From positions 42,840,632 through 42,904,631 of the forward strand of contig CP154954.1 of NCBI GenBank assembly GCA_039621445.1: a stretch of DNA of 64,000 nt. Direction: 5' to 3'. The notes below the pieces were generated by a model. It was not told the DNA's origin. It did no database searches and saw only the letters and a program-made list of their open reading frames with translations. The DNA comes from Euglena gracilis. Lineage: Eukaryota. Numbering within the stretch: position 1 is the first letter of the stretch; each line of letters opens with the position of its first letter. A program made the position numbers and the translations under genes. This document shows, one piece after another, positions 8,621-31,254 of this stretch.

Positions 8621-8798
8621 TCAGCAGGGGCGGACCGCATCCACACCGTCCTCCTCCTCCTCCTCGTCCTCCTCGGGGGCGGTGGTCACGCCACCGGGGG
8701 TGTGCCACGTCATGACGGTGTCCGGCCCGGAGGAGGCCACCTCGGGGCTGTCGGGGTCCACCAGGCGCAGCAGCTCGTACACGCTCATCCCCATCGCC
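8621..8798 (-). CDS. Cyclase last exon ((K)AMGMSVYELL...EEDEEEEEDGVDAVRPC*)
   Basis: VYEL motif that follows KGK in class III cyclases; TGA at 8621-8623; upstream intron ends CTGCCGCC. Confidence 0.85.
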
Positions 8799-11700
8799 GG
8801 CGGCAGGCAACCCACCGCAGTTGGGGGTGCATGCCAAGGCGCTGGAAGGCTTTTTGGCCAACTTTTCCAGTGGGACCGCGGTTCGAATGCCCACTCCTCA
8901 ACAGGTGGGGAATTCGTTTGGTCAACAGCGCATATGTCAAAAAAAGGCAAAAAAAATGGGGGGAAAAGCAGACCGAAATTTTTTTCTGAAAAAAGACTGA
9001 TATGGGTACTTATATGATATGGTATGACATGCTTTTCGGCATTTGACCTGAATGGCTGCGCACCCCTATGCAATGGGTTCAAATCAGTGCAAATCGGCGG
9101 TCGAATTGATAAGCAGTCCAAAATTTGCCAGTTTTTTTTGCAAGAAATATTTACCCCCCCCCAAATAACGGGGCGGGGTGCCCCATTACTGGCACCATCT
9201 TTTTGACCTGCCCCGTTATTTGGGCACTACCAATCATCATGGAATTCCCTCACAGACCTGTTGTAATGAGTGACGAGTGACACATCCTCCTACTTATGGA
9301 AATGATGAGTGTTGCAAACCTGACATCCGAGACCTTGAATATGATTTTGACCCACCCATTTGTTACCACTAATTTTACAACAAACTTAACACTGAATAAT
9401 ACCAAATAGCACCGCTGGATGAATGGGGAGGGCAGAGGCAGTCGCCTGAACTTGCCCTTCAGGTAAACGCCGTCCAGCCTCCGGGTAAAATCCAGGCTGC
9501 TGTGTGAACCTGAGCATCTGAACTGGGGACCCCCTAACCCCCAAACCCCTCAGAAGCAAAAATAACAAGAACGCCTTGTTGTGGCTCAAGGAAGAACATG
9601 AAACAAGTGCAACTGTTCGCAGTGGCAGGGGGGGGGGAGTTGGCGCTCTGCCTCCTCGAACCCCCCCCAGAAGCTCTAATGACAAGAACAGTTTGTCATC
9701 TCAAAAGTGTGCAAGTTGCAACGCTTTTTAATCTGATGTGCGTTTCCCGCCCACCCACCCACCCTCGCACCCTCCTTCACCCCCTCCCTGGCCACTCCTC
9801 ACTTCCTTCAGGCCATATGTGCAGAACCCTTCGCAACGTTGTTGGCCTGGTCGGGATTTCCAGTGGCCGGAAAGCCCCCCCCCCCCCCCCGGCAGGGCTG
9901 TACGGGATGGCCTGGTGGGGAGGGTGGTCGACCCCCCACCTGCGAGGTGGGGGGGACAACCCCCCGTTTCAATGGACAAGGAAAAAGTTCTTTTCGGTAC
10001 TTTTAGAGCCAAAGCAAAAAAAAATTGACCTAAAAATCGGCGCCCCCAGGAATACTGGAAGGGGTGGGAGGGGTTCAAACCCCAACCATCAGGATTGGGG
10101 GGAGGGGAACTCAGGCTGCCATAGGTGAGGTATATGGCCATTTCAGGATGTTATTGCCCCTTTGGCAAATTTCACCGCTGTGGCCGTTTTTTTTTTTTTT
10201 CAACCACTTTTGGTGTTGCTTTTTTGAAAAACGAAAATGAACTCAAATTAATCATTTCCATAACTTTAGAACCAGCATCACATCCAGAAAATTAATTGCA
10301 TCTGACCAAGGGGCAGGGCTCAACAGGAAGAACTGGTGGGGCACTGAGCAAGGGACCCGTGGGGATTTGGGGATTCCCACCAGCCCTGCCGGAGGGGATC
10401 GTTGGGGCGTTGTTGGACAACCCAAAACAAACCGCTGGACAAATGAGTGATATTTAATGGTTTTCTTGGATTTCAAAGAGAATATTAACATACCAAAAAA
10501 GGTGATAGTATTGGCTTCTTCCAGACATGTCAGAAAACATGCTTCAACTTCATTATTCAACACATTACCCACCCCTGAGCACCACTTTCAATTCCATGAA
10601 TAATGTGCCGGATGTGCCGTTGTTGTTGTGGTTGTCGCCGCTGGTTGTTGGGGGGGACTTTGTGCACACCTCAACAGGAGCCTCGCCACCACCCGTCGCT
10701 CCACCGCGGCGTGCAGCTGCGGCCCGATGAGGATGCGCGTCTTGCGCTCCTTGTTGAGCCCCTCCAGCCGGCTTGGCCGCAGGCCCGCCGCCTTCTCTCT
10801 TGGTCCTTCTCCAGACAGCTGCAAGCAGCCGCAAATGCCCGACAGCCACTTCGTGGTGGCTGCCACTGAACTCCTCCGAATTAAAGCAAACTGATGCTTC
10901 AAACTGGGTCTCGCCAGTAACTGACCCAGCACCGCTGCTTCAGACTTCGGGCAGAATGGTGGGGCCCAGCCTGGCCGCCACGTTGACCACATCGCCCACC
11001 ACAGTGTAGTTCATGCGGTACCGCGAGCCGAAGATGCCCGCGTGGACCTGCCCCGCCTCCAGGCCCATCCGGCCGGAGAGGCGGGCGCATGGGGCTCTGC
11101 TGGGAATGAGGCGGTGCGTGCAGGGGAAGGAATGGATTGCAGAGGGAGGTCAACTTGGGGGAAGGGTGTCGCGGCTGTGAGAGGGTGCCCGCACCTCGCA
11201 CAAACGAGGCTTTGCTGGTTCCCTTTTGGTGATGAAAACGGAGGAGGGTTGCACGGGAAAAGCAACCCTCTCCTGCTCTTTCCTGAGGACGGTTCACCAT
11301 CAGCGCGTCTTTTAACGACCCCCTCCCCCAGGTTGTCCAGTTCAGAGGCTGGAAAATTCGGGCTGCTGGATAAAGGCCGCTGGCTGACCCCACCCACTTG
11401 GGGTACCAGGCTTGGGCTGGAACTGGGCCCAACCAAGGGTCAGGAACCAAAAAATCCACCATGCAAACTCCAAAAAAAACTTCCAATTGTGCAAAAAAAA
11501 CGATTTTTTTTTACCCGAAATTCGTCCTGGCCAGCCCTTTCCGACCCATTTTTGCGCATTTTCGGCCCATTTTTTTGACACCTGAAAGCAAAAATTCATT
11601 ACCGTCCAGCCTCCCGAAGGGTGGCTGGAAACAAACGATAAAACCCATTTATGGGGGGCGCGTCTGGGCTGGAAAGAGGCTGGCTGGCTCCTCCCTGGGG

Positions 11701-14700
11701 GTGGGGTCGAATTTTCTTCCACTCGCCAATCTTTCCTGCATCCCTGGCTGCCGTTCTGTGCCCCCCCCCCCCAAGTGGAAATCACACAAGATGACTATCC
11801 TGTTGCCCAGATTGATTCCACTTCCCGCCTGGCCGGAGAACGTCCGTCCAAAATCAGTCATCACGGCCAGAAGGCAGGTCTTCAGCCCATCCCCCATCTC
11901 CGGGCCCCGCGATAAAAAAAAAGCCACCCAGCCGGCGGGGCCGCAGGGCGCCATGCCCGCAGGGAGCCGCCCTGCTGGTGGACCATCCAGTCCGCGCACT
12001 CCAGCGCCGCCCGGCACGCATGGTACTCGTGGTCCTTGACGGGGGACGGGGCGTTCCAGAAGGCCATGACGCAGTCACCGGCAGGCGATGGGCCGGGGCT
12101 TTGTTGTCCAGAAATGCCGGTCTTGAAAAGCAGGGGATGCCGGTGTTCACGGTTGTCAAAAACGACAAAGGAAAGGACGTCGCCGGGAAATAAATGAAAC
12201 GCACACAACCAGCACCCTTCACAGCCCTCCACCCATTACCCCACAACGATGTCATCCCGTTTCTGTGCATTACATCCTTTGATCCTGAAATCTCTTTGGT
12301 AAAGGAAACACTGGCTGAAATCAACAGCAAATAACTGCGGACAAAGAGCAATCCCTCGTCCAGGAAACCATGAGTATCAAAGAGAAGCAGGGTGACGCCC
12401 ACCACACACGAATATGGTGGGTGGTGCCAGAGTGAGATGCTTCTCCAGCGGGTCTAACACAGCACTCCAAACCCATGCATATGGTCTGGGGCCAAGGCCC
12501 ACCCTGGCCGCCGATGTACTTGTCGATTACCCCGCGGCGCCGCACGATGATGGAGGACAGCTCCTCGAAGAACGCGCCGATGCTCTCCACCAGCTGGGCC
12601 CAGGGATCGGCAACAAACACTCCCCACCCCCCACGCCACCAAAAAAACAAAGCAGAAAAACAAATGCGAACCGCCACCGAACTACCCTGTATTCAGCCTC
12701 AGAACAAAGTGCTCTAATTCTGCTAAGGCCTGGAGCACTGGTGGGCGTGGATTTACCTCGCCAGGTCGGGGAAAACCGCTGCAGACCATTTTTCAAAGCC
12801 CAGCGGGGGGGGGGGTATTTGCAAAAGGAGGGCATTGCAGGAAGTAATCTATCCTGAGACAATTTTGGTGCACAGGGCGAAGCGCCAAGCTGAAAGACCT
12901 GCCTCCCAAAATCCTTCCTGGAGACAGTCCCCTCCTGGAGTCAGTCTGGCCCTCCTGGTAGGTAGGTGGAGGTTTGGTCCGGACCCCCCTCCAATCTAGG
13001 AGGGGGGGGGGTGTCAACCCCCATCCTGGACACCCTCCATTGTCCCCAGGATTTGATCCACAAAGCTGTTGGGGCTGTTGAAAACTCATTGCAAAGAACT
13101 GATATGCTCAATCCCACGGGTAATGGGGTTGGGGAACTCTTCTTCTTTTGGTGAAAGTTTGTTCTGCCCTCAATGGCATGCGAAGACCTGACTGGGCCGC
13201 ATCGGTGGACTCGGTTAGGTTGGTAAAGTTCTCAATGTCAAGGAAGAACACTGTGGCAGCCGTTGGGGCAGAGGGGGACCAGCAAAATCTCTTCAGGAGA
13301 ATATTTTCTCCTATTTGCGACACAAATTGGAAAGAAGACATTACCCCCCCCTATGTCCAACGACCGGTAACCTCTGTCCTCTGACCGGGGGGGGGGGGGC
13401 GATCATTGGACATAGGGTAGTGACCAAAAAGGTGTCCTCTGACCAGGGGGGTGGTCGTTGGACACAGGGTCGGGGAAAAAAAAGTTTGCCAAACAGGTCA
13501 TAATTTTCCTTCCGGCGCTTCGCGCCCCCATTTCCAGCCCTGTCAACAAATATTTCCTCAAATGGCACCCAGAACGTACCTTTACGCTGCGGGATTTCAC
13601 AAAACAAAGATACCTAGTCGACAATCCCTGCATTCCATCAACCATCTTCACTGCATCATACAACCTAGCAAACACCCGAAAATGTCATGGTGGAACGTTG
13701 GGAGTGTGGTGAAGCTCCTTCGACAACCGCAAGCACTATCCCCGGTGGAGCGCTCGTAATGCACAAAACACCCCAGAGGGAACATTTTAATGGACGATGG
13801 GCTGCGGGGTAGAGGACAAGGGGGGAAGAAAAGCCTTTCAGGGCTGGCAAACCTCCGGTTTCACACACCTGCAAAAAAAACAACATCAAACCTCCGAAAA
13901 GGTGTCCTCTGACCGAGGGGGGGGGTGGTCGTTGGACATAGGGGGGGGTACAAAACGATTGCCCCATATATCTGATGGGTATGATCGTGGAGTACAGGGT
14001 GACGTATTTCATTGTTGCTGGTCACAAAAACAAGAAAAAGTCGTTTGATAGGGAGCAAGATGGTCAACGCCTGGGTTCTTGTGGTTGCAGGGGGTCACTA
14101 CGGTCCCGCCCTGGGGGGCACCATCGAGAAACCCACCGGCGTGCCGCTCTTCAGGCAGGGTTGCAGGACCTCCACCGGCAGGAACCGCGTCGGGGTAGCA
14201 GGTGGCTGCCGTGGCCCAGGGGGGCTCCTTTGGTCCTCGGGGGGGACAGACAACTCGTGAGATGTGATTTCGGAAGGTTGCATTTTTACGTTCCACCCCC
14301 CCCCCGCGCGGGGAACACGTCCACCGGTGCAAGGCAAGAATACAAACTTCTCAAGCTGGACTTTCCAACGTGAAATAGTTGTCGACCGCAGCCATCTTTA
14401 AATCTTTCCCCCAAAAAAAATGCGTAATGCACCGAAACTTATTTCCAGTCCATTGCAGCTGTACCAGGCTACACCAACTTTCAGCGACCCTCCCCTCGGG
14501 GGTCTGCAGCCTTGCTGGGAGCTGCTGGTTGGGAAAAAGTGCTCCAGCTGGAGCCCCCCCTAGTCCTTTCCACCAGAAGTGATACCCTGGTGGGTATCAT
14601 ATGACGCTCCACTAGAAATTCCATAATTTCTGACAGATTGTGCCAAGCTTCAATGTCGGCAAGAACTGATGAAACTGATCAACAAACTGAATTTATTCTT

Positions 14701-17700
14701 TGTTTTGGTTCCCAAGGATCGATTTCCTAATGCAATATTCTATAGTCACAAAACTGCACGGTTTATTTCTGGGAGGGTTTCGAGAATGCGACAAGCTGGG
14801 CTGGAAACCAGCAATGGCCGCCTGGCCACGGTGTCCAGCATGACGCGCATCTTGGCGAAGGACTCCATCATCAGGCTGAGCTCCCGCACACAGGTTCCCC
14901 GGGGCACGGCAGAGCCCACCACGTCCAGCTCCACACAGCGGTGCATGTCCCGGTTGAAAGGGGGTGCATATATTTGATGCACGGAGCCAAATGACGCACC
15001 GGAGGTCAGCTCCTGGCTGAAACAGAAAAGCTGGCGGGATCGGTGAGGCCGGACCGGCATTAGCAACGACCTGAGAGGCAAAACTTTGAGATAATTTCTT
15101 GTCATCAAAATGGTAACTTCCCCTTGTCATCAAATCAACCTTCGCTTTTGCTGAAATGTCGAAATTTCAAGAAATATCTTATAAAATTTGCTTTCCTGGA
15201 ACATGATTTTTTTAAAATAAAAAAAAGGCGCCGAAGCCTCAAAGTCCGCCAAAGCCTCTGCCGCCCCTTTGCCACGCGACCTGCCTCAGAGGGGAGGCGA
15301 TCATCTTGTTGGTGAAGAGCACCGCGACGAGGGCCACGGCGGCCAGGCTGGTGACGCTGATGATGACCAGCAGGGCCACCGACCACCGGATCGGTCCATC
15401 CACGGCGGCGGTGGGACACCTGCGAGTAGTGTGACTCAACCAGCCAGAAACTCAATCACCTGCTTGCCTACTCCGAGCTCAAGGTTCCATTTTTTAAAAA
15501 AAGAAAATGCGACACCATCTGCACTTCTTTGGTGTCATGCTGCATACCCACATCATTGATGTAAAAAGGTTACAAGAAATTTTCATTCTGGTTTTAGAAG
15601 AATCTGATAACTTGACGCTTTGAAAATTAATTAACCCTGGGCCAACCGAGAAAAAAATCCTGGGCCGACCGATAAAAAATCCAAAAGAAAGACACAAAAA
15701 ATTTAATATCCACCCCTCTGATGAAAATTGTATGGTGGGTCCCAATCTTGACTTAAAAACAATGAAGCATCTGAACTTTGATATTTTTTGAGGGAAGGCG
15801 CGTCGAAGAAACCTGAAACTGATCTTTTGGAACCTGAAAAGTGATGGTTTTTTGTTGGGGCCAATGTTGGTCAAGAAAAAATCTACAAATAAGACCTTCC
15901 CAAAATGTAAGACCCCACTAGAGGTTTCCAGCAACGGACCAAGAAATTTGGGGGAATTATAAAAAATAATACGCACTCAAACATGCACAAATATTTCATT
16001 GCAACATAATGAATGCTTCTAGACAGCTCACCTAGCTAGCCAGCCATCAATCAAAAAATAAAGATAAAAGTTGATTAATAAAGGTTGAAAATAGCAACTT
16101 ATCATGGAAGATGGCAAGTATGGCACATATGGGGGTTGAATAGAACCGAAAGAGACTCAGTCTGAAGAATTTTCAGCACGTTTTGTTAGAAGTGCCCCAC
16201 CAGGTTGAACTATGAGGGGTGGCCAGCACAAGATAATAAGGGGTGACGTCCCCGCGGGAGGAAGGCAGGGGTTGATCAAACACAGCGGTCTGGGAAGGGC
16301 TAAGACCACTCTTATGAGAGGCTGCTCTCAGGAAGAAGACACAGGCACTGTCACACATACATTCCCTTACCTACAGCAAATATATGCTTGCACCTTCCCC
16401 TGACTCCTGGCATGCAATGCAAATACAGTGGAGTGTGAATGTTGAAATGCAAGGTTTCCCTAAAGAGATGCACAGAACTGCCTCGCGCAAAAAAGCTAAA
16501 AAGCTAAATCATCAGCACCAGTGCAAAAAAAGGCACACGATGAATCAGAAGGATGTGGCGACACAACCCCGAGTAAAATTTCAATCGAATGCGGATTAAT
16601 CTGAAAGGGTGGACTGCGCATGCACGGAAGGGTTGGCCAGGGGGAACTGAGACAGCCCATCCGTTGGGCGTTGGGGGGGGGGCAGCGACCCCTGGGCGTC
16701 ACGACACGCTGCCAGCTGATGAGGAAGCTCCCAGTGGCTGTTGCCACACTGGCGGCGGTGGCCCGGGCCTCGGGAGGGGCGGCAAGCGGGGCCAGGGCCT
16801 GGTAGGTCTGGGCCACCACGGCACAGTCGGAGCCGGCGGCGGCCACCAGTTGCCCGGCGCGGTGGGTGGTGCCAGGGGCCCCGGGGGGGGGGGGGCTGTC
16901 GGGCGAGGTCGGCCGTGCCGGCCTGCCACCCACATGCGGGGCGTCGCCCCGGGAGACGGGACAGTCAGCCAAACTCCACGAACATTCCACCAAGAGCGGG
17001 CCGGCAGAGGAGCGACAACGCAATCTGGTTGCATTCTCCCAACTTGGGTTTCCTTTAGGACCCGGGGGTCCCGGCCCCCCCACCCCCTTTGGGGGCTTTG
17101 AGGGTCGATGTTTGGGACCCAAAGACTCGAGTATGCCAAAAGTCAAGGAAAAGCCCCCTCCGGGGGGTACCCACTCAGCCCATACCCGGTGGGTCATCAA
17201 AAAAAGGCTTTAAAACAATCTCTGCCCCGCCCAAAAAAACTGGCATCCAAGAGCTTGGACAGCATTGGGGACCTTCCCAATATCCCTGGCATGGCCCAAG
17301 ACCCCCAAAAGGAACCGCAACAGACTTCCACTCCAGCAATATGCTCCTGGCATCAGGCAATCTGACAGTCATGTTGGCCTTCCAGACGAGCAGGTTTCTC
17401 CTTGAAGAAGCCAAAGAGAGGGGTTTAGACCAAATCACTTGACAGTGAGCATTTTGAGGACTTTTGCATTCGAGCCATTTAATCATTAATCTGATAAACA
17501 GCCCCTCACCAAAATTGTCGCATCCAAAAACCACAATGCTAAACCCTTTCAATCCAAAAATGCCAAAAATAACGATATGTTGGAGGAAAATATGGCAGCG
17601 AGGGAGGGGATTGGTTGGGTTTTGTCTGCAAAGGCTGATTGTGGCTGTCTAATAAAAAAAATTAAAAGAAGCCAAAAAATGATGGCAACTTCAGCGGCCG

Positions 17701-20700
17701 TGGCCATGCCAGTCAAATCCGGCCACCAAAAACGGGGGCACCCCCCACCACCACTTCCCATGGGCCGTCCTTCTTCTTTGGAGGGTCGGTCATAAGGAGG
17801 AAATGATATTTCACAAAAAAGGTATTTTCTACGCCAGCTTCTGTCTGTTGCAGGTTTCTTGGCCGTTTGAATCCCCATTGGCATCTTTCCCCTCCGCTTG
17901 GCGTTCACCCTACCGACCGCTCCAGTCACAAATTGGGAATGGAAAGAGGGGGGCTAGGAAGTGTTTGAGAGACTTTGACTCTTGAGAGTGAACCTCCATC
18001 TGAATGGATAATCATTAAAATGAATTAAAGAGCAAAAAATTGGCGTCACTCTCTGAGTTATTTTCTAAAACATTTTTGCCTTCTCGACATTTTGATGGAT
18101 GGAGCTAGATGAAGGCTGGGGGGCTGTGATGGAGGAAGCTGTGATGAGGGGAAGAAATGCAAGGATAGGTGAGCTGGGCAGCCCAGTTGGCTGGCTAGCC
18201 TGCAGCCGGCTGGCCCGGCCTTCGGCTGGCTGGTACGGCCTCCGGCCGGGCTGGACCCAACGTTATTTCACTCGACCCCCCCCCCCGGGGGGCTCCCAGC
18301 CCGAATTTGGGCTGCTGGCTGGATTTGAGCTGCTGGCTGGCTGGAGCCCCCCCCCGGGGGGATAGGGTACCCTCCGGTTTAAGAAAACCCCTGGATGCAA
18401 GATACATTCATTTGTGACTTCCAACTGGCAACTGTTCAGCAGATTGTCGAGCAACTGGCTCAGGCCTCCGTTCAAGCCACTTTGGAGCGACAGGTGGACG
18501 CCTACGGTTCCGGGGAGTCCGCGGAGGGCCCCTGCCCGGCGCCGCACGTGGCGGCGATCAGCGTGCCGCGGTCGTCCACGAGGTACGCCGTGGAGGCCCC
18601 CGCCGCCCCGCCGCTGAACCGCTGCACCGCGGAGTGGAGCAGCGCCGCCCAGTCAGCCCCCAGGGCCTCGCCCCCCTCTGCTCCTCCGCCCATCCCCTGG
18701 CTGAGCAGTGGGGGGGCAGCTGTGTGCAGGGGGGAGGGGGGTCCCCCCACCCACCCACCCCCTGGGCCCCCAAGAGGGGGGGTCCCGGGGGACCCACTCA
18801 AAAAATCGCGAAAATTCCAAAAATAGCACCTTTTCAAAAAATTTTCGCGCCTTCTACACCAAAAAGTACATCCCACTCCCCGCCTGGGGGGACCCTGGGG
18901 GGGGGCTCGGCCGGACCCACCCACCCTACCCCCCCCCCCGGGTCCACGACTGAAAACAACCCTGGCTGTGTGAGTGCTGTGGTGTTGGTCGGAGGCGGTC
19001 CGCCAGGCCCTGGCCCACGTCCTGCATCCACACGAAGTGGATCACGGGGAGGCCGTCCACGCGGGTCATGCGGTACTGCCCCACCTCCGTGAAGGTCAGG
19101 GGGATGGCCCCTCGCGGCCAACCCAGGTGTTGAGCCAAAAAAAGTGATGGTGGATGTGATGATGTAATGATGAGAAAAACACGCCCGTATTTGCCTCCCC
19201 AAACTGCATCCCTCGCCGGACTCGCTCGGCCAGGGAGGAGGCGCCATGCGTGGGGCACTGCCGTCCGGCCGGTCCTCCTGCCACAGCCACGGCTCCAGCC
19301 ACTCCGCGGAGCCGTCGGTCATGTTGAAGTACCGCTCCCCCCGGTCGGACGGGGCGTCCCACGTCTCGAGGGTGGCCGGCGGCAGGGGGCCCCGTCGCCC
19401 GTGCAACGCTCGTTTGTGTCACCCCCAGTGTGACTACCGTTTGCCGGATTCAAAAAATTTCAAAAAATTGCAAAAAATTCACCGTCTTCACGGTGTCCTG
19501 CAGAACACCCTGGGCCCGAGGTTCCAGTACCGGTCCACATGATCTGGCGCAGGCAGGTACTTGTTGTCGGCCGCAGAACGTCGGGAGGGGTCCAGAACGT
19601 CGGGAAGATGGTGCTGTGGCGAAGACCATCAGGACTGAACGTTTTTTATTACCTCCCACAGTAACCTTCCCGAACCCCCCCCCCCCAACCTGCCAAGGGG
19701 TCTGGACTGCCCTGGGGTGCCCGGAACCCCCCCCAAAAGTCCAATTTTTTCCTTCTGCCGATTTTTTTTTGCAGTTTTCAGAAATTTGTCCCTGATTGCC
19801 GGTCGATTTTGGGGTGGTAAAAATGGCCATGTCCAGGTAGAAAGTGTCCTTACACCCCCCCTTTGAATGGATGGAGGTCTGGACCCCCACCTATCCTTAT
19901 ATCGAGCCCAAAATCTCCCACATGAAGCCAATCAGAAATAAATGACGCATGTGTTTCGTCATCTGTTCAGCCCAGAGTTTTTTTTAAGTTTTGTGAGCAT
20001 GGTGGGGGTGGGTGGTTGGGTGGGTCCCGGTCGAGCCCCCCCACCCCGGGGGGGGGGGGGTCGGGCTGAGTCGGACCCTGCCAGAGGCAGGGTTTTGCTC
20101 CATTTTTGGTGCGAAGCACCGAATATATTTTGGATGGTTGGGTGGGTGGGTCCGGACCCTTTTCTGTCCTTGGGAACATGGCGCGGGAGTTGGCGTTGCC
20201 GGCCATGAAATGGCACAAGTGAGCTCTCATAGTCTGCTAGGTGATAGGTGATGGGTTTGATCCCCTCATGTGCATTGGACAGGTCTTTGGGATCGCTGGG
20301 TGTCCTGTAAAGGCCAATATAATGACGATGCACAGCAAAAATTATAAAACATTTGCATTGGAACCCGATGCCTTGATGGAACATCATCAGTTACTGCAGG
20401 ACGTGGGAGGTGCCACTGCTGCCCCTCCCACGGCAACCTGGCGGTGGGGGGGGGTCCGGATCCGAACCATACCACTGGTTAGCGACTGCTGGGGGGGGGG
20501 GGGGGGGTCACTTTCAACGTTCAAAAAAACCAGTCAGTAACTATTGAAAAACCAGTAACCTGACCCCCCGGGGGGGGGTCAGTCAGCGCCGGCCATAAAC
20601 AGACAAGAAGCCTAAGTGCAACTAAGGGGGGGGGGGTCAGTCAATTTGGCCACTTTGGCTCAAAATCAATTGATTTTGGCGAAAATCCCAAGAAATGTTC

Positions 20701-23700
20701 TGGCGTCTTCAGCGAATCCTTGGTCTTCGGCGGACATTTTCGGCCAATCCTGGCCGACTCCAACAATCCCAATCCAATACCCATGATAAGGCATTGGGAT
20801 CAGGCAATGGTATGATCCGGATCCTGTTTCCCAGTCAAAAGCGGGGCGTGGGGCACCCTTCACCTAAAGCCGGTGCAGCCTCATCATGTTCAACCATGGG
20901 GTCTGGGTTCAGCGGAAAGGACCAGCCTGGGGGCGGTACATGACCGTGCTGTTTGTGAAGTGTTCCCAGAACAGGTCCCGGCGGCCGGCAAAGTCCATCC
21001 GGCTGGCGCAGAAGCTCCACGTCTTGCCCCCAGGGCAACCCCCAGCCTCAACCCCCAAGGAAAGAGTTAAAAAAAATACCCCTGGAGGCTGAAGACCTTG
21101 TGACTGTTTGCTGTGGCTTGAATGGCACGCGGCAAGCGCTGGTTCACCCTTGGGGGAAAACCCCAGCTGGATTGCACACCGGCGAACGGGGGAATGGAGC
21201 TTGGTTGCAGCATCAGGGAAACCCTCTCAGAGCAACTTGTCGGAAGACAGCAGATCCGGAGCAGGAAAGGCTCCACACAGCCCAGGTTGCAAACAGCTGG
21301 AGGCCTCCCTGCCTGACGTGGGGACTTTGTGTCGGCTTCGTTTTTATTACGTTGTTATTATCACTCACAATGCATTGGTATCTTAATCACCTTCTTTGGA
21401 AGCCTCTCGTTTGGCGCGGGTGCATGCTTGCGTTAGTCAGACAATCGGCACTCTTGGCATGCGAGAGGGCTGCCCTTGCCACCAGGCACATACTCGCGAG
21501 GGAAGATGGTGCACATGCCGCCGACGCGGTTCGCTACGCCCGCCATCCAGGGGAGCATCACCCGCTTTGGGGATGGGCTGACCTCCACTTAGCAAGGGCA
21601 TCAAAGAAAACTGCCTCATACCCCCCCCCACAGGAAACTGTCACCAGACAAGTCAGTGAGCACAGAGGCAGGAGACCGTATCAGGGCAGGGCAACCAATA
21701 TTGTACCAGAGGCCAATTCTGGGGGATCCAGTTCAGAGAGATAAAATGACTTTTTGGACTCTCCAGCTGACCGAATATCCGAAAATGCACTTTTTCTTGG
21801 ATCCATTTCTTCTGAAGATGCAGTTTTTTTTCCATATATTTTGATCGGGAGCCAGATAAACACAGAAAGTATTTTTTTCGATTCGAAATATAACCTCTTC
21901 GCCACAAAAATGTAAAAAATCCGAAAAAAGCAATAGGAAAAGAGAAATAGGAAATTGGAAATGGCCAACAGGTGCAAAGGGTGGGCAGATTTCGATGAAG
22001 ACAGGTCAACAGTCCTCGTCACATGTGGTGACGAACAGCCTGCGGCGTAGGGATGTATGGGAAGCGGAGGGGGGGTGTTCCACATAAAAAATGTAAATAT
22101 AACAAATATTAGGCATTTTTGGTTTATTTTCAAAGGAAAATCAGGGATTTTCCAATAATTTTGGCCTGTTATCCGGCCCTTTGACGGTACGCCAAAACGT
22201 CAAAAAATGGGTAATATGTTCAAAAGTGAGGAGGAAAATGTTTTTTTGCTCATTTTCTGGTGCTGTGTGCCGAAAAAAAAAACTTTCGCCATTTTTGGAA
22301 CTTGCTGAGGGGGGTCTGGGAACACCCTCCAAACTAGGGGTGGTTCCAGGTCCCCCCTGCCACCGTACCCGGGGGTTGGGGCCCCGCCCTACCACCTAAA
22401 TCAATAATGCCAGGCTTCCCATCTATCCCTGGGGGCAAGCCGGGAGGCACCAGCCTTTCATTTTTCATGCACTGCACAGAGGCTGGGCAGGGGTATGGTC
22501 GACTGGGCTGGAGGCGGAGGGGGGGGTCAGAGCGGCCCAGCCCAGGCAGGTCCGGCTCCATCACGGCACCGGACAGGTCCCCTTCCCGGTGCCGCAGCCA
22601 GGCGTCCCGGGCAGGGGGCGGGGCACGGAAACCAACCAGAAGGCTGGGGCGGGGGGCGGGGGGCACCACGCTGGGGCCAACCCCAGCCCCTGGGCCATGT
22701 AGTTGACCCAGTAGTCCGCCTCGTCCAGGGCGGCCTGGACGCGGAGGGCCAGCACGTGGAAGTGCTGCGCCGACACCTCCGCCAGCAGGTCGTACCCCAG
22801 CGCCTGCGTCTTGACGGCGCTGACCGCTGCCGCCGGGGGCCCCATTGGCCGATGGCCGGTCCCCCCATTTGTTCCGCACCGCGAGCGACCGCAGGTTCGG
22901 CCGCCACCCGGACCGCGGTCGGATTTCGCCCCTGAGCCAGACCAATCAATGGTCGCTGGGTTTGCTCATGAGGGACTTTGGGTTTGACGACCAGGCAGAC
23001 TCCAAACGAGGCTCCAGGACACAGAAACCGTGGGGACATATCAGACGGGTAGATTTCAATTTGCACGACAGAAAACAGAGAAAGCGAAACCTTAAAAATA
23101 ACACACACAATGCAGTGGAGCATTAAATGCATGTCAAAGTTATGTGGTGTGTGACGTTTCCTGTCTCCTTTCCCCATACCATTTTCACTCATTTTCAACC
23201 AATTCTTTGGATAAGCAATAAAATTGCGAAATTACATTCAGCGGTGCCCTTCCTTGCAGTTCCACAACGAACGAAGCCAGCTGGCCCCCGGGCATCACTG
23301 GGGAGGTGCTGCAGACGCTGATGAAGATGGCGAGCAAGCACGTCAGCAGCAGAACGGGGATCAGCGGCAGGCGCTGGCGGTGCCGCGACTCAGGAACAAA
23401 CAGGGGGGAGTGAGTTGCCAGCGGCACAGGAGATGGGTGGGGGATGGCAGGGACCCACGTTTGCAATTTCATTTTTAGGTCTCAGAGAAATTGGGCACTT
23501 CCTGCCAACAGTTAGAGGTATAACCCACCCGTCTTCCATGGGTGCCACTCGTCCCATCCCCACAGTCCGGTCGGACCCCCCTCCAAGCCTAAAAACATCT
23601 CTGATTGGATTGGCCGCACCTCGAACCACTGTCAGCGCTCGCTTGACACCGAAATTGGTTTGCTGACCACGTCGTGAATGTGTTCTCAGGCAGCCAAGGG

Positions 23701-25060
23701 AACACAACAAAATGCATGGGTTTAGGGTCAAAATTCAGTAAAACATCTCTTTTGGACTTCTTTGGAGCTAGAGAACATTAAATACTCCCGTCTGAGCCTG
23801 AATGGGCTGAGCTGGCTCCAACTTTACTTCAGCGGACCGGGGATTGTATAGCCTTGATTGGCTGGCCCTCCCCGCAAGGTAAGAAAACCCCCCGAAGAAA
23901 GATTGAGGAAAATCCGCCAAGTCCAATGCAAATACAAAAAGAGGCAGCAAAAGCGTTTTCCATCGCAACTGCACATTTGGGGGGAAATTTGCATCACTTC
24001 TTCAATTCATTGTCATCCTTTCATTCACTGTCAACTGTAAATGTTGAATAGGCACGTGTGGGGTGCGCCTGGACAGTGGCACTTGGCGAGACGGTGGGAT
24101 AGAGCCAGGGTTGCAAGGTTTGTTGAATGCGCAGTCGGTTGGGAACAGGAGTTTCACAAACATGCTTTTTGCTGGTGGCCCGGGTTGGTTTTGTGTGTGC
24201 ATTTTGAGAATCAGGATACGAGTGCCAAGAACTGATTCTCTTTGCCAACGTCAGCACAAGCAATATGGACGAGGCCCTCATTTCTTCTACACAACCGAGG
24301 AGGTGCCGTCTGTTGTTTGGCGTTGTCTCCCTTCATCGAGAACCCAAGGGGAGGGTTCACTTCGGGCCTGACCAGGGTTTGAAATGAAGCACGGATCCCC
24401 CTACGGTGGCCCCCCCTCAACAGTGGCCGGGCAACAGTGGCACACCGCGCGCCGAGCCGAAACGTTTTGCCTCCCCCAAAACGATGTCAAAAAGGCTAAA
24501 AATTTAGCGGCGCTAAGAGGGTCCCGCCCCCCCCACCTCCCAAAGAGGTGGCAGGCAAAGAGATGGGAGGAGTTCTGGACCCTTCCCATGGTCAAGACAA
24601 CTCAGAGAATTCTCCTGTAGTATTTTATTGGGTCACGAATACCTTCATCAAGGACAGCTGACCCCCCATCGGGAGACTGCACCCCCCGCCAGGATATTGT
24701 TTACAATTTATCCACCCCCAATGAACAACCGCCTTACCAGGGTCCCTTTGACAATGTCAACCGGATGTCTGTGACAGCTCCCTCAACGCGCCAAACAACA
24801 TTCAAAGACACATCGAGGTTGTGTTAGAGCATTCTCGAAGCCATTCCTGCTCAAGCAGTTCGTTTCCGGGGTGGGCAGCTGGGGGGCGACGGCCCCCAGT
24901 GATTGCCGGCAATGATGGCCGGGAGCAGCGCCCGGGGTCCTGCGCAGCTCTGGGGCGGGGTCGGCCGCGTGACCGGACCGGACCACCAGGCACCGCTCCC
25001 AGAACGGTCTCCGGCGAGCCCCGGTCAGCCCGCCTGTCCAGGCTCGCTGGTTGAGGCCAT
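8621..25060 (-). CDS. Receptor-type class III adenylyl cyclase (TM, extracellular domain, TM, HAMP, cyclase), about 22 exons, roughly 750-800 aa; copy 1, complete at the 3' end
   Basis: Spliced exons reconstitute TVFFLDIENFT, IDKYIGDCVMAFWNAP, RMGLEAG..GIFGS..RMNYTVVGDVVNVASRLEGLNK and RRLDGVYLKGK, with two hydrophobic TM exons. Junctions stay in frame under the non-canonical intron rule. The 5'-most exon is uncertain. Confidence 0.9.
9452..9487 (-). CDS. Cyclase 36-nt mini-exon (TRRLDGVYLKGK)
   Basis: Supplies the conserved KGK motif in frame; the flanking intron ends are complementary to their partners. Confidence 0.8.
10688..10774 (-). CDS. Cyclase exon (SRLEGLNKERKTRILIGPQLHAAVERRV)
   Basis: SRLEGLNK..ILI motif; intron 10775-10976 reads GGCCAGGC...GCCTGCGGCC. 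Confidence 0.85.
10977..11082 (-). CDS. Cyclase exon (LSGRMGLEAGQVHAGIFGSRYRMNYTVVGDVVNV)
   Basis: Catalytic core motif YTVVGDxVNxA; this frame is missing from the ORF track. Confidence 0.92.
11959..12076 (-). CDS. Cyclase exon (DCVMAFWNAPSPVKDHEYHACRAALECADWMVHQQGGSL)
   Basis: Second metal-binding Asp and the MAFWNAP motif. Confidence 0.92.
12510..12595 (-). CDS. Cyclase exon (QLVESIGAFFEELSSIIVRRRGVIDKYIG)
   Basis: GxIDKYIG motif with the adenine-specifying Lys. Confidence 0.92.
13194..13263 (-). CDS. Cyclase exon (TAATVFFLDIENFTNLTESTDAA)
   Basis: First metal-binding Asp motif FxDIxxFT. Confidence 0.92.
13344..13948. mobile_element. Tc1/mariner-type (Stowaway-like) MITE in a cyclase intron
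   Basis: Perfect 22-bp TIR CCCCCCCCTATGTCCAACGACC with TA on both sides (13342-13343, 13949-13950). A related end occurs at ~2340-2406. Confidence 0.85.
14116..14191 (-). CDS. Cyclase exon (TRFLPVEVLQPCLKSGTPVGFSMVP)
   Basis: RF(L/V)P linker typical between HAMP and the cyclase domain; boundaries uncertain by 1-3 nt. Confidence 0.8.
14828..14951 (-). CDS. Cyclase HAMP exon (DMHRCVELD...VRELSLMMESFAKMRVMLDT)
   Basis: HAMP second-helix pattern ELxxLxxSFxxM; in-frame junctions on both sides. Confidence 0.85.
15274..15415 (-). CDS. Cyclase TM2 and HAMP-start exon (AAVDGPIRWSVALLVIISVTSLAAVALVAVLFTNKMIASPLRQVA)
   Basis: Hydrophobic stretch of about 23 aa followed by IxxPL; 5' boundary approximate. 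Confidence 0.85.
16218..16260 (-). CDS. Cyclase small exon (SRGDVTPYYLVLA)
   Basis: In-frame join via intron 16261-16697 (GCCCAGGGGT...ACCCCTGCCTTC); 3' boundary approximate. Confidence 0.65.
16698..16867 (-). CDS. Cyclase extracellular exon (THRAGQLVAAAGSDCAVVAQTYQAL...GSFLISWQRVV)
   Basis: Intron 16868-18537 has a perfect CAGGGGCCC/GGGCCCCTG stem; frame conserved in copy 2. Confidence 0.8.
18538..18654 (-). CDS. Cyclase extracellular exon (DWAALLHSAVQRFSGGAAGASTAYLVDDRGTLIAATCGA)
   Basis: AYLVDxxGxLIA resembles a Cache-domain motif; in-frame junctions. Confidence 0.85.
18727..18964. mobile_element. hAT-like MITE (238 bp) in a cyclase intron
   Basis: CAGGG...CCCTG termini; perfect 8-bp TSD GCTGTGTG at 18719-18726 and 18965-18972. 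Confidence 0.85.
19016..19118 (-). CDS. Cyclase extracellular exon (PRGAIPLTFTEVGQYRMTRVDGLPVIHFVWMQDV)
   Basis: GC3-rich codons; downstream intron stem CAGGGCCT/AGGCCCTG; 5' boundary approximate. Confidence 0.75.
19250..19377 (-). CDS. Cyclase extracellular exon (ATLETWDAPSDRGERYFNMTDGSAEWLEPWLWQEDRPDGSA)
   Basis: WxEPW resembles the Cache WxxPY motif; 3' boundary approximate. Confidence 0.8.
19516..19568 (-). CDS. Cyclase small exon (DNKYLPAPDHVDRYWNL)
   Basis: Preceded by CTGCGGCC and followed by GCCCAG; two of the three copy-2 differences are synonymous in this frame. Confidence 0.75.
20928..21025 (-). CDS. Cyclase extracellular exon (KTWSFCASRMDFAGRRDLFWEHFTNSTVMY)
   Basis: In-frame join via intron 21026-21480. 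The 3' boundary is unresolved and small exon(s) may lie at ~20170-20440. Confidence 0.75.
21481..21568 (-). CDS. Cyclase extracellular exon (KRVMLPWMAGVANRVGGMCTIFPREYVPG)
   Basis: Both flanking introns form terminal stems and preserve frame. Confidence 0.75.
22548..22606 (-). CDS. Cyclase exon (DAWLRHREGDLSGAVMEPD)
   Basis: 89-nt intron 22607-22695 reads GCCCAGGGG...CCCCTGCCCGG; synonymous GAA/GAG change in copy 2. Confidence 0.75.
22696..22828 (-). CDS. Cyclase exon (AVSAVKTQALGYDLLAEVSAQHFHVLALRVQAALDEADYWVNYM)
   Basis: Helical segment after TM1; intron 22829-23293 has the stem CGGGGGCC/GGCCCCCG. Confidence 0.85.
23294..23385 (-). CDS. Cyclase TM1 exon (RHRQRLPLIPVLLLTCLLAIFISVCSTSPV)
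   Basis: Basic residues followed by a hydrophobic helix; in-frame join to the next exon. Confidence 0.8.
24872..25060 (-). CDS. Putative 5'-most cyclase exon(s)
   Basis: GC-rich block with ACAATGGCC at 25060; CGGAAACGAAC after 24872 can pair with GTTTGTTCCTG before the TM1 exon. An in-frame TGA would require a further short intron. Confidence 0.35.
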
Positions 25061-26319
25061 TGTTGCTCCGCCCGCCAACAATCCTGGCGCGGAGGGACGG
25101 ATACTGCCGGCGAAAGCGTCACCCGGCCGGCGGGACCGAAGGAACCTCAAAAGGCAGCACAGGCCAAGCCCGCGTTGTCTGCCCACCCGGAAAACGCCCC
25201 AATTTCGCCCAATTTTTCCGATTTTGCCGCGAAAAAAATCCCGGGAAATTTGTGGCTCCCAGGGTGTTCCGGGATAATTCTGGGATTATTATACCCTGCC
25301 GATACCTTACGGTCAAAGTGGCCTCCAGGCAGTATGGAACCCCAAAATGGCCACTCTGGGGGAGGGGACACTTTGGGGGGGGGGTGAATTTTTGGGCTTC
25401 GGCGACTTCGGGCCAAAAGGTAATGGCCACTTTGGGGGGGGGGTAAACCAAATTGGCGAAAAACTTTTGGCCACTCTGGGGGGGGACACTTTGACGGGGG
25501 GGGGGGGGGGGGTGAGGGTATCTCGACAATGAAGCAAAATCAAAGAAAATGCCCGGAGAGCAAAAATGAAACCCTCGAAATGCCCTATCCAACCATGGTT
25601 TTCCTTTCCCCTAACTCTTTGCGTAGCCCGAGTTACGGCCATTTTCCGGCCCATTTTGGCCCGTTTCAGGGGCCATTTTGGACTGTTTTCGGGGTCAAAA
25701 AATTGATGTTTCCAAAATATCTCGAAAATGAAGCAACATAAAAGGAAATGTCCAGAGACCCGATTTGAAGCCCTTGGAACACCCTATCTAACGATCTAAC
25801 GGTACCATGCCCCCCCCCCCCCGAAAGTGTCCCATACCGGGCCCAACGGCAGGGTGGGTATGGGACCCCCCCCCGGGGGGGGGTACTGGCTAGCCAATCG
25901 GCTAGAAACTGGAAAAAGTGGACTAGCTAGACCCCCCTCCCCCCTGGGGGGGGGGGGTCCGGGGGTCCCCCAGACTGGAAATAAAATTTTCCTCCGGCGC
26001 ACAGCGCCGGAGGAAAAATGAGGTTTTTAACAGGTTTTGGGCTGAATTTTGTTCAAAAAATTCCCCAAAATGGCCAAAAACGGGCATTTTTGGCCATTTT
26101 TGGGTGTCCCAAAAAATTTTCGGCGCTTTGCGCCAGTCGCTGGAAAATTTTTTTCCACTAGCTGGCCCTGCTAGCAGACCCCCCCGGGGGGTTCTGGTAG
26201 AAACCCCACTAGCAAAATTTGGACTAGCTGCAGTCCACCCCCCCCCCCCGGGGGGGTACTGCAATCCCTTGAGCAAATGCCTGTATGGGACACTATCGGG
26301 GGGGGGACACTATCGGGGG

Positions 26320-26610
26320 CAGGGGTTTTTTTAAGAGCGGGGGGGGGGGGTCCCCCCCCACCCACCCACCCCCCAGAGGGGGGGCCCCCCCGGGGGGGGG
26401 GGAGGGGGGTCCGGGGGACCCACAAAAAATGGCCGAAAAATCGCGAAAAGTGCTAAAAATAGAATTTTTTCGGCGCCTGCGGCGCCGAAAAGTATATCCC
26501 ACCCCCCTCTGGGGGGACCTCACCGGGGGGGGGGAGGGGGTCCGGCGGACCCACCCACCCTTCCCCACCCCCTCCCCCCCCCCGGGGGCCCAAACTTAAA
26601 AAAATCCCTG
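26320..26610. mobile_element. hAT-like MITE (291 bp)
   Basis: TIR CAGGGGTTTTTTTAAG / CTTAAAAAAATCCCTG (15/16); perfect 8-bp TSD ATCGGGGG at 26312-26319 and 26611-26618; internal similarity to 18727-18964. Confidence 0.9.
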
Positions 26611-26909
26611 ATCGGGGGGGTCAATAAAATTCCTTTAGGACCGGCCGGCCGGGTTCCATGGTAGGGATATGGGACACTATCGGGGGGGGGGGGGCAGTAT
26701 CGGGGGGCAGGGTTGACGTTTTTTTGTTTTTTAAAAAAAAACACAAAAAACATGTTTTTTTATATAAAAAAACGCAAAAAAAACATATATTTTTTTGAAA
26801 AAGCAAAAATTGACCTTTTTCCTTGCGAAATGACCATTTTTTTGAAGGAAATTTTTCGCGGATTCCCCTGAACGTTTGGGTGCCCGAAAAAAGGTTAAGC
26901 AGTGAAGGT

Positions 26910-29497
26910 GGTTTACGGTTTTACGTAAACGTGCGAAAATAGAAGTTTACGGAAAACCGTGTACCTGAACTTGTTTACTGTCTGCCATAGACCTGTGCTG
27001 CACCCCTCTTGTTTGTGAATGGGGCCCAAACCTTGTCCCCAACCCCTGGAGCTGTGGTTGTGGCCATTTTGACCAAGCCCCCACCCCATATGTCCGATGC
27101 AGCGACTGAATATGTTCACGTGTTTCCGTAAACTTGCTATTTAAAATTATTTGCCGTTATCAATGCATCCCTTCCTGGTACAGCCCCTGCGTTCTGTGGG
27201 AACAGTGCTGGAACAAGGCACGCTTTGTCCATATCAGTGTGGTGTTGGTGCCAAGCTGTGGAGGTGTTCCCCACAAACACTGGCTGGGGTTGCTTGTGGA
27301 GCGGTGGTCCCCCCTCTCACCAGGTGCAGTTGCAACTGAATGAAATGATGTTCACGGTTTCCCGTAAAAATTAGCACAGGTTTGGAGAACAGAATTAACT
27401 CTGGGCAAAGGAACCATGTTGCTGTTGATGAGCCCAGTTGCCATAGACCGACCGGCTACAACCACCTCGACACACCTTGGGCTGGGTAACAGGTGCCCTC
27501 CATTCCCCCGACTTCCCCTGATGCCTCCCAAGAAAGCTCCCTCAAAAACACCCCAGGCTGAGCTTTTTAAAGGCTCACTGCAGGGGGTCGCACCTGCTTC
27601 CTCACCACTTGTTGGGACTCAGCAGCTCCATCCCGACATCGAGATACCCCCCATCTTTGGAATCCAATGTGGTTTCCCTTCAAACTCCCCCACTTACTGA
27701 AAATGTCCTGGAAAATTATTTATCCATTTGGGCATTCCATTTCAACATTACAGAGAACTGCCCTCAAAAACACATTTCGCTCTTCAATTTTGAAGAGCTC
27801 GGCAAAAGAGGCTGAGTTATGCTGAACGTAAAACTGTGGAGCTTAGAGTACGTTTTCAGAATTCCATCCGTTGTTGCTTGTTGCAACTGGGGGAAAAATT
27901 CACCGAAAAAGAAGAGGCAGCTGGAAATCATCAGAGCGAACACCACTCAGAGCAACCGCCTCTCAGGATTGTCACTGACAACCGTCAAAAAAAAATTGGC
28001 CGCTTTCAGCAGGTCAAAATATAGCCTTTTTTGCAGCATCCTTTGCCAATACATTTCGAAGGTTAGCAGGTCTTTTCATAGGGAGCTTCTTTTGATGACT
28101 GTCAAATGATCCTTGAACTCTCTCCTCTATCTTCAAATCACAGTCCACCGTGAGAGATTGGATGAGAGACACGAGAGACTTGCCTGAAAAAAGGTGAAAA
28201 AAATCCAACGACCACAACTTCCGTTGCCAGCTGTGCAAGATTACTTGAAGATCACTTGGGTGAGTGAGCACCAGCTGGTGGTTTGCCCCTCCAATTCTAC
28301 CCGAGGCAACAATGGAGACCATCTTTATCATTATAAATGCAAAAACACTGATATCGAGATGTTTACAGTTTCTCGGAAAATTTTCTTCAACTGAGCACTG
28401 TTTACGGTTTCACATAAAACCAATTTTGTGCGTTGTTTACGGTTATCTGCAAAGGAGGGAAACCTTTGCTTTTTCGGTCAAGCAGGCTGGTGGGGTGAGA
28501 TCCGATGACCTTCCCCCTCCCACTCCACAGGTCCTGAACGCTGCAGACGTTCTGGTTCTTATCAGGAGATGGGTTGCAGCAAATTAACATGGTGGCACCG
28601 AGCAGTGTGATTCACACAGGGGGTCGCGAGTCGGAACACTCTCGCCAAAAAAAACCACTCTCCTGACGGAATGTGTCCTTGCCCCTCGGGGAGACCCCCT
28701 ATCTGGCAGTTTAGGTGGACTCGGAATGTATGTTTCAAACCAGCTTGGGGCCCGGAAAGAAAAATATGGGGCATTCTGGCGGCTGCTGTTGACTCCGCTC
28801 CCGGGGGTTGAGTGGTGGAAACGACATAAACTCCTCCGGAGCACCCGCACAGCAACGGGATCCTCCCCTTCAGCTGTTGGAACTCTACCGCTCCTGTGTA
28901 ATGCCCTACCAGTCCAGGAGGCAAGGGGGGAGCACCGGGGGGTGTCCAGCTGCTTGGCAGCCATCAGGGGCACCAAGAACGAGAGCACCCCAACCCCTTG
29001 TTAACACGGCTTATTTGCACACTTCAAAAAAAATTACGCAGAACCGTAAACATCATTAACTTTACGGTTTCCTGTAAAACTTCATTTTGAAAGTTATACA
29101 CTCACAACCTGCCCAGGAGAAAGAAGGGGTTCCATTTTTGCAAAAGGGGCTCAAAAGGCCAAATCGGGAAAACTGTTTTTACTGGTTTTGCAGGCATTTA
29201 GCCAGGCAACCGCTGTTCAGGAATTATCAGGCCTTTTTGGGGACAAACACAAAATTTCGGACAGAGTCTCTGCTGGGGGGTGGCAGTCAATTTCAGCCGG
29301 CACCAACAAAAAGAAAATTTTCGGGGGAAAAAATGTGGACACAGGGGACTCGACACAAAAGGGCGAAAAATTCCTGATACAGCAAAAAGCCCAAAGTACC
29401 CAAAACGGGATCAAAAGGGTCGTTTTTATCGAGGTGGAAACCAACCCAAAAACTTTCTGGGAAATTTTTGGAGTAAAAGTTTACGGGAAGCCGTGAC
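26910..29497. mobile_element. Degenerate DNA-transposon-like region with repeated GTTTACGG/CCGTAAAC motifs
   Basis: The motif recurs at ~26911, 26946, 27125, 27350, 28400, 28435, 29044, 29060 and 29480. A stop-containing minus-strand segment near 27940-28130 weakly resembles a hAT dimerisation domain. Confidence 0.35.
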
Positions 29498-29758
29498 CTT
29501 TTAAGTGAAAAAACGACAAAAAAAAGTGGGCAGACAACGCGAGCTAGGATAGGGGGCTGCAAGCGCAAGGTCCGGAAAAAAACAGAAGCTTGCCCCTACC
29601 AGCCTGAGGTTCATTGAACTTTGGTGACTGTGAAAGCACTCAAATTTATTTCTCTCTGCAGCATGACTGTGAATATGACTCTGGATGGCAGCTAGCACCT
29701 TTTTTTTCCAGCCAAACCCCCCCCTTAGGGGGGTCCGAAAAAAAAACTCCCTGTCCGT

Positions 29759-31253: not shown

Positions 31254-31254
31254 T

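Follow-up and report, generated by a model that had tools for sequence, protein, structure and literature searches.

A probable Euglena gracilis cyclase gene interrupted by 24 nonconventional introns with complementary ends

Introduction

Nuclear genes of euglenids contain a nonconventional class of introns whose characteristic pairing of positions +4 to +6 with positions -8 to -6 was published in 2014-2016. The subject here is a class III nucleotidyl cyclase gene that is interrupted by such introns and lies on the minus strand, at 32449..8621, of a 64,000-nucleotide stretch of DNA (contig CP154954.1 of assembly GCA_039621445.1, positions 42,840,632 to 42,904,631 of the forward strand). This whole stretch is called the window below, and all positions are counted from its first letter.

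Nonconventional introns of euglenids lack GT/GC-AG borders, and their positions +4, +5 and +6 pair with -8, -7 and -6, mostly as CAG/CTG; purines at the 5' terminus of the intron and at the start of the downstream exon have been described as well (Milanowski, 2016, PMC4770533). Among 28,337 introns counted in E. gracilis, 12,186 were GT/GC-AG introns and 16,151 (~57%) were nonconventional with terminal pairing (Gao, 2024). A larger E. gracilis collection, Dataset S6, holds 413,446 introns in 39,233 genes, with 62,894 of the 72,771 non-slidable introns (~86%) being nonconventional, and the share given for E. agilis is 71.8% of introns (Nomura, 2025, PMC12501133). The nonconventional introns are reported to be removed after the conventional ones (Guminska, 2018). 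Knock-in mutagenesis in E. gracilis has defined a code, 5'-N3-CDG-/-CH'G-N5-6 with R as the first letter of the next exon, in which the length of the 5' spacer is strict, one additional nucleotide (weakly also one fewer or two more) is tolerated in the 3' spacer, and pairing behind CAG/CTG is required (Nomura, 2025). The same source describes 84.4% of introns as slidable and finds the code in 61.2% of the nonconventional introns of E. agilis, with 38.8% outside it. Trans-acting factors are called unknown there, and a 2024 review agrees; a search for a paper that identifies the excision machinery found none in the searchable literature. An earlier note on this DNA, made from the letters alone, had assigned the introns to the euglenid class by the pairing of +4..+6 with -8..-6, which matches the published definition, and had called the machinery unidentified, in line with these sources.

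Our reading is that a membrane-anchored class III adenylyl or guanylyl cyclase is encoded in the window by a nuclear gene, from Euglena gracilis or something very closely related to it, with 24 euglenid nonconventional introns and no conventional one, which are removed by way of their paired ends; we put its probability at roughly 0.93. The intron class, the pairing and the spacer rule are already published, and a gene with exclusively nonconventional introns is ordinary for E. gracilis, because ~57-86% of its introns are nonconventional by the published counts. By our own arithmetic, 24 of 24 would have a probability of ~1e-6 to 0.03 under independence; E. gracilis has tens of thousands of many-intron genes.

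A Cyclase Gene of 25 Exons

The DNA of the window is eukaryotic and rich in G+C. When the exon at 16697-16867 (minus strand) is translated, it has one match in a large protein collection, eukprot:EG_transcript_1910 (764 aa, 96% identity), which carries PF00211. Names of this form denote E. gracilis transcripts (Ebenezer, 2019), and both the match and its naming indicate a euglenid host; the sequencing runs listed for this DNA all share one species label. This transcript-derived protein was used as mapping query (P0003): with tblastn and enumeration of junctions, all of its 764 residues were placed on 25 minus-strand blocks between 32449 and 8624. The resulting gene (8621..32449, minus strand) has 25 exons of 26-175 nt, 24 introns of 89-7214 nt, and 746 codons plus stop. 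After removal of the 24 introns, the joined coding sequence of 2241 nt has no internal stop, and 733 of the 746 residues are identical to those of the query. The earlier note had let the gene span 8799..23293; it reaches 32449 and is thus ~9 kb longer.

The assignment to the cyclases is carried by the catalytic domain, which is the sole Pfam match of EG_transcript_1910 (PF00211 at residues 524-712, E 1.4e-14, 54.5 bits against a gathering cut-off of 21.9); no Pfam family reaches E 0.01 in the N-terminal ~500 residues. A search of the PDB returned 32 sequences with E of at most 0.001, headed by CyaB (3r5g, E 1.1e-16), a bacterial adenylyl cyclase, and the motifs FFLDIENFT, DKYIG/DCVMAFW and VVGDVVNVA(A/S)RLEG align to solved cyclases. 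The metal-binding strand, ..K(F/Y)(V/I)GD..M..F, becomes contiguous across the RNA-supported junction 12509/12077, where DKYIG/DCVMAFW matches DKFVGDCVMVFF of 3r5g. It had been claimed that the cyclase motifs rejoin in frame once the introns are cut out, and this is borne out by the 746 open codons and the restored strand. The PF00211 catalytic domain is common to this gene and to class III nucleotidyl cyclases with transmembrane segments, such as the NCIII expansion of E. gracilis (Ebenezer, 2019) and CyaB (3r5g); the N-terminal part without Pfam match sets this gene apart from them.

Transcript Evidence for the Junctions

RNA evidence came from two contig runs whose RNA origin is a guess (X1 and X2) and from two raw RNA-seq runs chosen by species label, which were mapped to 8500-25200, a stretch that covers 22 of the 24 introns (all but introns 1 and 2); junction figures refer to 15 listed joints out of 48. 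All 15 listed joints coincide with introns predicted from the protein (3-7, 9-12, 16, 18-20, 23 and 24), with sliding of 0-7 nt, and loose ends of contigs that run into the adjacent exons back three further introns (17, 21 and 22). Exact removal is thus observed at the RNA level for 15 listed joints and three loose-end junctions in four runs, and the same joints recur in these runs from four studies, including the two raw-read libraries. In run X24, first mates map almost only to the plus strand, which by the usual convention for stranded libraries points to minus-strand RNA. Mapping with non-canonical junctions allowed had been proposed as a check by the earlier note; the listed joints equal the predicted introns and none of them is GT-AG. 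Its five example introns have exactly the ends that it quoted: 12077-12509, 12596-13193 and 8799-9451 match RNA skips, the contig loose ends agree with 10775-10976, and 16868-18537 is consistent with the transcript-derived protein.

Absence of GT-AG borders was assessed by enumerating, for all 24 introns, the junction placements that are consistent with the protein. None of the 93 placements has GT/GC/AT..AG/AC ends, sliding at the nucleotide level yields GT/GC-AG in no intron, and GT-AG alternatives were accordingly rejected for every intron. The claim that no GT-AG intron is needed therefore stands, and the description of the gene as spliced "almost entirely" by nonconventional introns can be sharpened to 24 of 24.

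Complementarity and Register of the Intron Ends

A stem of at least 4 bp that starts exactly at +4 and ends at -6, i.e., a 3/5 register, is present in 17 of the 24 introns. In 2000 random sets of pseudo-introns, matched in length and taken from this region, such stems numbered 1.07 per 24 on average and never more than 6. Many ends share CAGG/CCTG, which is why the 3' ends were in addition permuted among the 24 introns: none of 20000 permutations reached the observed total stem length. Likewise, duplexes of the first 20 nt with the last 20 nt had a mean energy of -20.1 kcal/mol when the ends belonged to the same intron, compared to -16.3 with mismatched partners and -7.5 with random ends, and none of 20000 permutations had a total energy as low as the observed one. 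The complementarity is therefore specific to each intron and goes beyond a shared consensus. Purines occupy the 5' terminus of the intron in 22 of 24 cases, and equally the start of the downstream exon in 22 of 24.

The published motif with its spacers, N3-CDG/CH'G-N5-6, is found in 13 of the 24 introns, 12 of which are also followed by an exon that starts with a purine. Ends are written here as spacer, stem, stem and spacer, followed after a slash by the first letter of the next exon. Intron 1 (32318..32413, 96 nt, ACC-CAGGGC..GCCCTG-CCTCC/g) is placed by the protein, outside the RNA-mapped stretch. Intron 4 (23363..24074, 712 nt, GTC-CAGGCGC..GCGCCTG-CCGCT/g) corresponds to the RNA skip 23362-24073, which is slidable by 3, and intron 5 (22829..23293, 465 nt, GCC-CGGGGGCC..GGCCCCCG-GCGGC/a), a CGG/CCG derivative of the code, to a skip at identical positions without sliding. 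Intron 6 (22607..22695, 89 nt, GCC-CAGGGG..CCCCTG-CCCGG/g; skip 22606-22694, slidable by 2), intron 9 (19545..20932, 1388 nt, CCC-CAGGC..GCCTG-CGCCA/g; skip at identical positions, no sliding) and intron 10 (19378..19515, 138 nt, GCC-CAGGG..CCCTG-CCGCC/g; skip 19377-19514, slidable by 1) fit the code directly. The 3/6 spacing of intron 12 (18655..19015, 361 nt, GGC-CAGGGCC..GGCCCTG-GGGGCT/g; skip 18654-19014, slidable by 1) is within the published N5-6. Introns 13 (16868..18537, 1670 nt, GGG-CAGGGGCCC..GGGCCCCTG-GCACC/a), for which 18 of 18 junction residues agree with the protein, and 14 (16261..16697, 437 nt, GCC-CAGGGGT..ACCCCTG-CCTTC/c), whose motif fits and whose next exon starts with a pyrimidine, are both placed by the protein. 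Intron 19 (12596..13193, 598 nt, AGT-CAGG..CCTG-GGCCC/a) has a 7-nt direct repeat at its flanks and a skip, 12594-13191, that is slidable by 7. Intron 20 (12077..12509, 433 nt, GGC-CAGG..CCTG-CCGGT/g), whose removal joins DKYIG to DCVMAFW, is skipped at 12076-12508 (slidable by 1) in all four runs, with 18 reads in X21. Intron 22 (10775..10976, 202 nt, GGC-CAGGC..GCCTG-CGGCC/a) has contig loose ends at 10775 in X1 and X2, and intron 24 (8799..9451, 653 nt, GTT-CAGGCGAC..GTTGCCTG-CCGCC/g) a skip at 8798-9450, slidable by 1.

The remaining introns depart from the code in their first triplet, in a spacer or in the pairing at +4/-6. Intron 2 (25010..32223, 7214 nt, GCC-CGAGCCCCGGTCA..TGACCGGGGCTCG-CCGGA/g) keeps the 3/5 frame with CGA/TCG instead of CAG/CTG; its ends form a 13-bp perfect terminal inverted repeat (CGAGCCCCGGTCA/TGACCGGGGCTCG), which would place the exact cut among 8-11 placements compatible with the protein, the source for this intron outside the RNA-mapped stretch. 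Four introns likewise keep the frame with other first triplets: intron 7 (21569..22547, 979 nt, GCC-TGGGCTGG..TCAGCCCA-TCCCC/a) has U-A as first pair (TGG/CCA), not CDG/CH'G, and an RNA skip at identical positions without sliding; intron 15 (15404..16205, 802 nt, ACC-TGGTGGG..CCCACCG-CCGCC/g), placed by the protein, has U-G as first pair; intron 16 (14952..15273, 322 nt, GGC-AAAGGGG..CCCCTTT-CAACC/g; skip 14950-15271, slidable by 2) has AAA/TTT instead of CAG/CTG; and intron 21 (11083..11958, 876 nt, GGG-CATGG..CCATG-CGCCC/g), with CAT/ATG, is backed by contig loose ends at 11083 and 11958 that continue into the neighbouring exons.

In three introns of 3/5 frame, +4 and -6 are unpaired (in single square brackets). 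These are intron 8 (21026..21480, 455 nt, GGC-[A]AGGGCAGCCCTC..GGGGGTTGCCCT[G]-GGGGC/a), where 12 pairs follow if G-U is allowed and the protein, its source, is compatible with 5-7 placements, none of them GT-AG; intron 11 (19098..19251, 154 nt, ACG-[C]ATGGC..GCCAT[C]-CCCCT/g; skip at identical positions, no sliding); and intron 23 (9488..10687, 1200 nt, GGC-[G]AGGCT..AGCCT[G]-GATTT/t; skip 9488-10687, slidable by 1), whose next exon starts with T. Off register are intron 3 (24101..24956, 856 nt), to be read as GCCC-CAG..CTG-GCTCT/a (4/5) or as GCC-CCAG..CTGG-CTCT (3/4), with a skip at 24101-24956 without sliding in X1, X2 and X21 (11 reads); intron 17 (14192..14827, 636 nt, GGC-CAGG..CCTG-CTACCCC/g, 3/7), where 13-nt contig loose ends at 14827 (X1, X2) continue into exon 18 and 18 of 18 junction residues agree with the protein; and intron 18 (13265..14116, 852 nt, CCC-CAG..CTG-CCCC/a, 3/4), with a skip at 13265-14116 that is slidable by 2 and has 13 reads in X21.

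How a paired helix might direct excision can be outlined as follows. In the pre-mRNA, the intron's 5' end, from +4 on, would pair with its own 3' end, up to -6, and the helix would place both splice sites side by side. The excision machinery, probably not the GT-AG spliceosome, would cut on both sides of the helix, the 5' side 3 nt upstream and the 3' side ~5 nt downstream (4-7 nt here); the exons would then be joined and the intron released, reportedly as a circle. Circular excision without a lariat is said to go back to work by Guminska in 2021. No back-joints of circular introns were seen among the 15 listed joints. Exact RNA junctions, the lack of GT-AG ends, the intron-specific complementarity with its register and the open frame after removal are observed at this locus. 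Three further points would follow from the literature: formation of the helix in vivo together with the need for it, a circular product, and excision without the spliceosome.

Weighing the Alternatives

Several observations weigh against a uniform, pairing-directed excision of all 24 introns. Eleven introns lie outside the published CDG/CH'G code, with CGA/TCG, TGG/CCA, TGG/CCG, AAA/TTT or CAT/ATG as first triplets, in one case with CAG at +5, and with 3' spacers of 4 and 7 nt. Four of 24 are off register (intron 3 with 3/4 or 4/5, intron 18 with 3/4, intron 12 with 3/6 and intron 17 with 3/7); RNA skips bear out three of these, and loose ends the fourth (intron 17). Three of 24 (introns 8, 11 and 23) have +4/-6 unpaired before 5-12 pairs follow. 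The earlier note had spoken of a "fixed" geometry of 3 nt, stem and 5 nt: the geometry as such is borne out, being strict in 17 introns against ~1 by chance, and "fixed" is too strong in view of these seven. A partial fit to the code is to be expected, because Nomura (2025) finds it in only 61.2% of nonconventional introns. Whole-intron folds of three short introns are no more stable than shuffles (z 0.55, 0.44 and -0.35), and the minimum free energy (MFE) fold of intron 6 leaves the ends unpaired; in introns 1 and 10, the ends pair in the MFE folds. Global fold stability thus does not discriminate; only positional complementarity of the ends does. Furthermore, six introns (1, 2, 8, 13, 14 and 15) have EG_transcript_1910 as their evidence. 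At several exon positions, the majority of the RNA disagrees with the window, and much of the read support therefore comes from a second allele or copy.

The introns could in principle be ordinary U2 or U12 spliceosomal introns with degenerate splice sites, their terminal complementarity being incidental. Tunicate spliceosomes are described to remove mostly non-GT-AG introns (PMC13326754; a 2024 review), and two introns of this gene start with GT (at 24074 and 9451). Against this stand the 93 placements, none of which has GT/GC-AG or AT-AC ends, and the stems in fixed register, far above chance and specific to each intron. A T-rich tract is missing as well (T fraction 0.17 over -35..-6), and in E. 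gracilis, mutation of CAG/CTG or of the 5' spacer abolishes splicing of such introns (Nomura, 2025). We therefore regard a spliceosomal origin of these junctions as very improbable. Even less credence is due to the idea that there is no RNA splicing at all and that the junctions are artefacts, created by template switching, by assembler jumps at short direct repeats or by an intron-less DNA copy. In its favour, 17 of the 24 introns are slidable, flanked by direct repeats of 1-7 nt, the RNA nature of X1 and X2 is a guess, and the mapping took in no DNA run. However, five of the 15 listed joints share no letters, the joints are the same in four runs of four studies, two of them raw RNA-seq libraries, and the 24 removals together restore a frame of 746 codons and a canonical cyclase core. 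In addition, 0.68 of the words of the stretch with the introns are present in the DNA data set X20. Removal of nonconventional introns from the RNA by way of their paired ends is the reading retained in the following.

Two further results are negative. A comparison with a second, partial copy of the gene (described below) yielded no compensatory changes: the intron ends of the two copies hardly differ, and where they do, the change falls in a spacer or makes a stem shorter. An Rfam scan of the whole window at gathering thresholds gave no match.

Comparison with Other Introns

Compared to the introns of tubA, tubB, hsp90 and gapC (Milanowski, 2014, 2016) and to the genome-wide sets from E. agilis and E. 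gracilis (Nomura, 2025; Gao, 2024), the introns of the cyclase gene are alike in their non-GT-AG borders. They also share the pairing of +4..+6 with -8..-6, mostly as CAG/CTG, with G/C common at +7/-9, the 3-nt 5' spacer and 5-6-nt 3' spacer, purine ends, slidable borders and a variable length (89-7214 nt). There is no difference in kind: 11 of 24 introns are off code here, versus 38.8% in E. agilis. Intron 2, with 7214 nt on protein evidence, exceeds the longest nonconventional intron of Gao (2024), which has 5931 nt.

Introns 4 and 24 resemble the intermediate introns of euglenids (Canaday, 2001, via Milanowski, 2016) in that they start with GT and carry a terminal stem, but neither ends in AG. 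Such a 5' GT has been put down to pressure for a 5' purine rather than to kinship with conventional introns (Milanowski, 2016). Transposon-derived introns (introners, similar to miniature inverted-repeat transposable elements, MITEs) are likewise comparable, as they have terminal inverted repeats and direct repeats that resemble target site duplications, e.g., the 7 nt at intron 19. In contrast to them, none of the 24 introns is homologous to another over its full length, and the internal repeats that they share measure only 24-174 nt. A single MITE family as recent source of the introns is not supported, as blastn of introns against introns gave no full-length homology; nothing at this locus therefore points to a single family with recent activity.

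Introns Outside the Code and an Alternative Acceptor

In run X21, off-code introns, with 4-13 reads, are about as well supported as canonical ones, with 3-18. It is conceivable, if rather doubtful, that the machinery takes the helix end as its point of reference and accepts more than N3-CDG/CH'G-N5-6, namely spacers of 4 or 7 nt, CAG at +5, a U-A, U-G or A-U first pair, and an unpaired +4/-6.

Two acceptors are seen for intron 20. The RNA runs use 12077 (CCTG-N5/G), and EG_transcript_1910 uses 12126/12125, 48 nt upstream (CCCTG-CTTTTC/a, i.e., N6/A). The alternative acceptor adds 16 residues within the catalytic strand DKYIG/DCVMAFW; homologues in the PDB are without an insert there, and in contrast to EG_transcript_1910 the mapped RNA runs lack it at the listed joint. 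The 5' CAGG box can pair with either acceptor. It is likewise conceivable, if rather doubtful, that a single 5' CAG box selects between two CTG boxes 49 nt apart, and thereby switches a 16-residue insert in or out of the catalytic strand.

A Partial Second Copy and Other Features of the Window

The window contains a direct duplication of ~24.4 kb, 15244-38789 versus 39013-63441, with 91-96% identity and a run of 13 N at 38790-38802. It includes a second, partial cyclase copy (39043..57016, minus strand) that comprises exons 1-16 and 15 complete introns with the same nonconventional ends and is without exons 17-25; none of 59 placements for these 15 introns has GT/GC/AT..AG/AC ends. The duplication breaks 29 nt into intron 16 and adjoins the 13-N run; an assembly artefact is therefore possible, and the choice lies between a genuine partial tandem duplication and a join made in assembly. 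Conceivably, exon 16 of this copy is spliced to the single exon 17, ~24 kb away; the contigs are too short for phasing.

At 8749, 10696, 11020, 11976 and 14131 and in exons 11, 13 and 14, the majority of RNA reads and contigs disagree with the window. In the 5' half, eight of 13 exon variants of the RNA equal the letters of the second copy, and in the single-copy 3' half, most RNA departs from the window at no fewer than five positions. The bulk of expression thus seems to come from a second allele or locus that is closer to EG_transcript_1910.

Within the introns, contig depths of the RNA contig runs sum to thousands over the intervals 12956-14069, 17969-18525 and 20197-20753 (introns 18, 19, 13 and 9), and this suggests high-copy repeats whose transcripts come from elsewhere. 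In intron 18, a short unit with a C-run between imperfect inverted arms occurs three times. The window has 44 G or C homopolymers of at least 12 nt (e.g., 9875-9893 and 20490-20508), at which reads pile up with loose ends of G/C runs and spurious long joints occur, e.g., from 9892 to 20490. Positions 1-405 are a simple repeat whose plus-strand frame reads as IHTY repeats, and the first 2 kb, with a G+C content of 0.416, are below the rest of the window.

Implications

A gene finder based on GT-AG would miss this gene entirely. The RNA-supported gene model corrects the database transcript at one junction. For work on the excision machinery, this one locus offers 24 natural test cases, 11 of which lie outside the published code.

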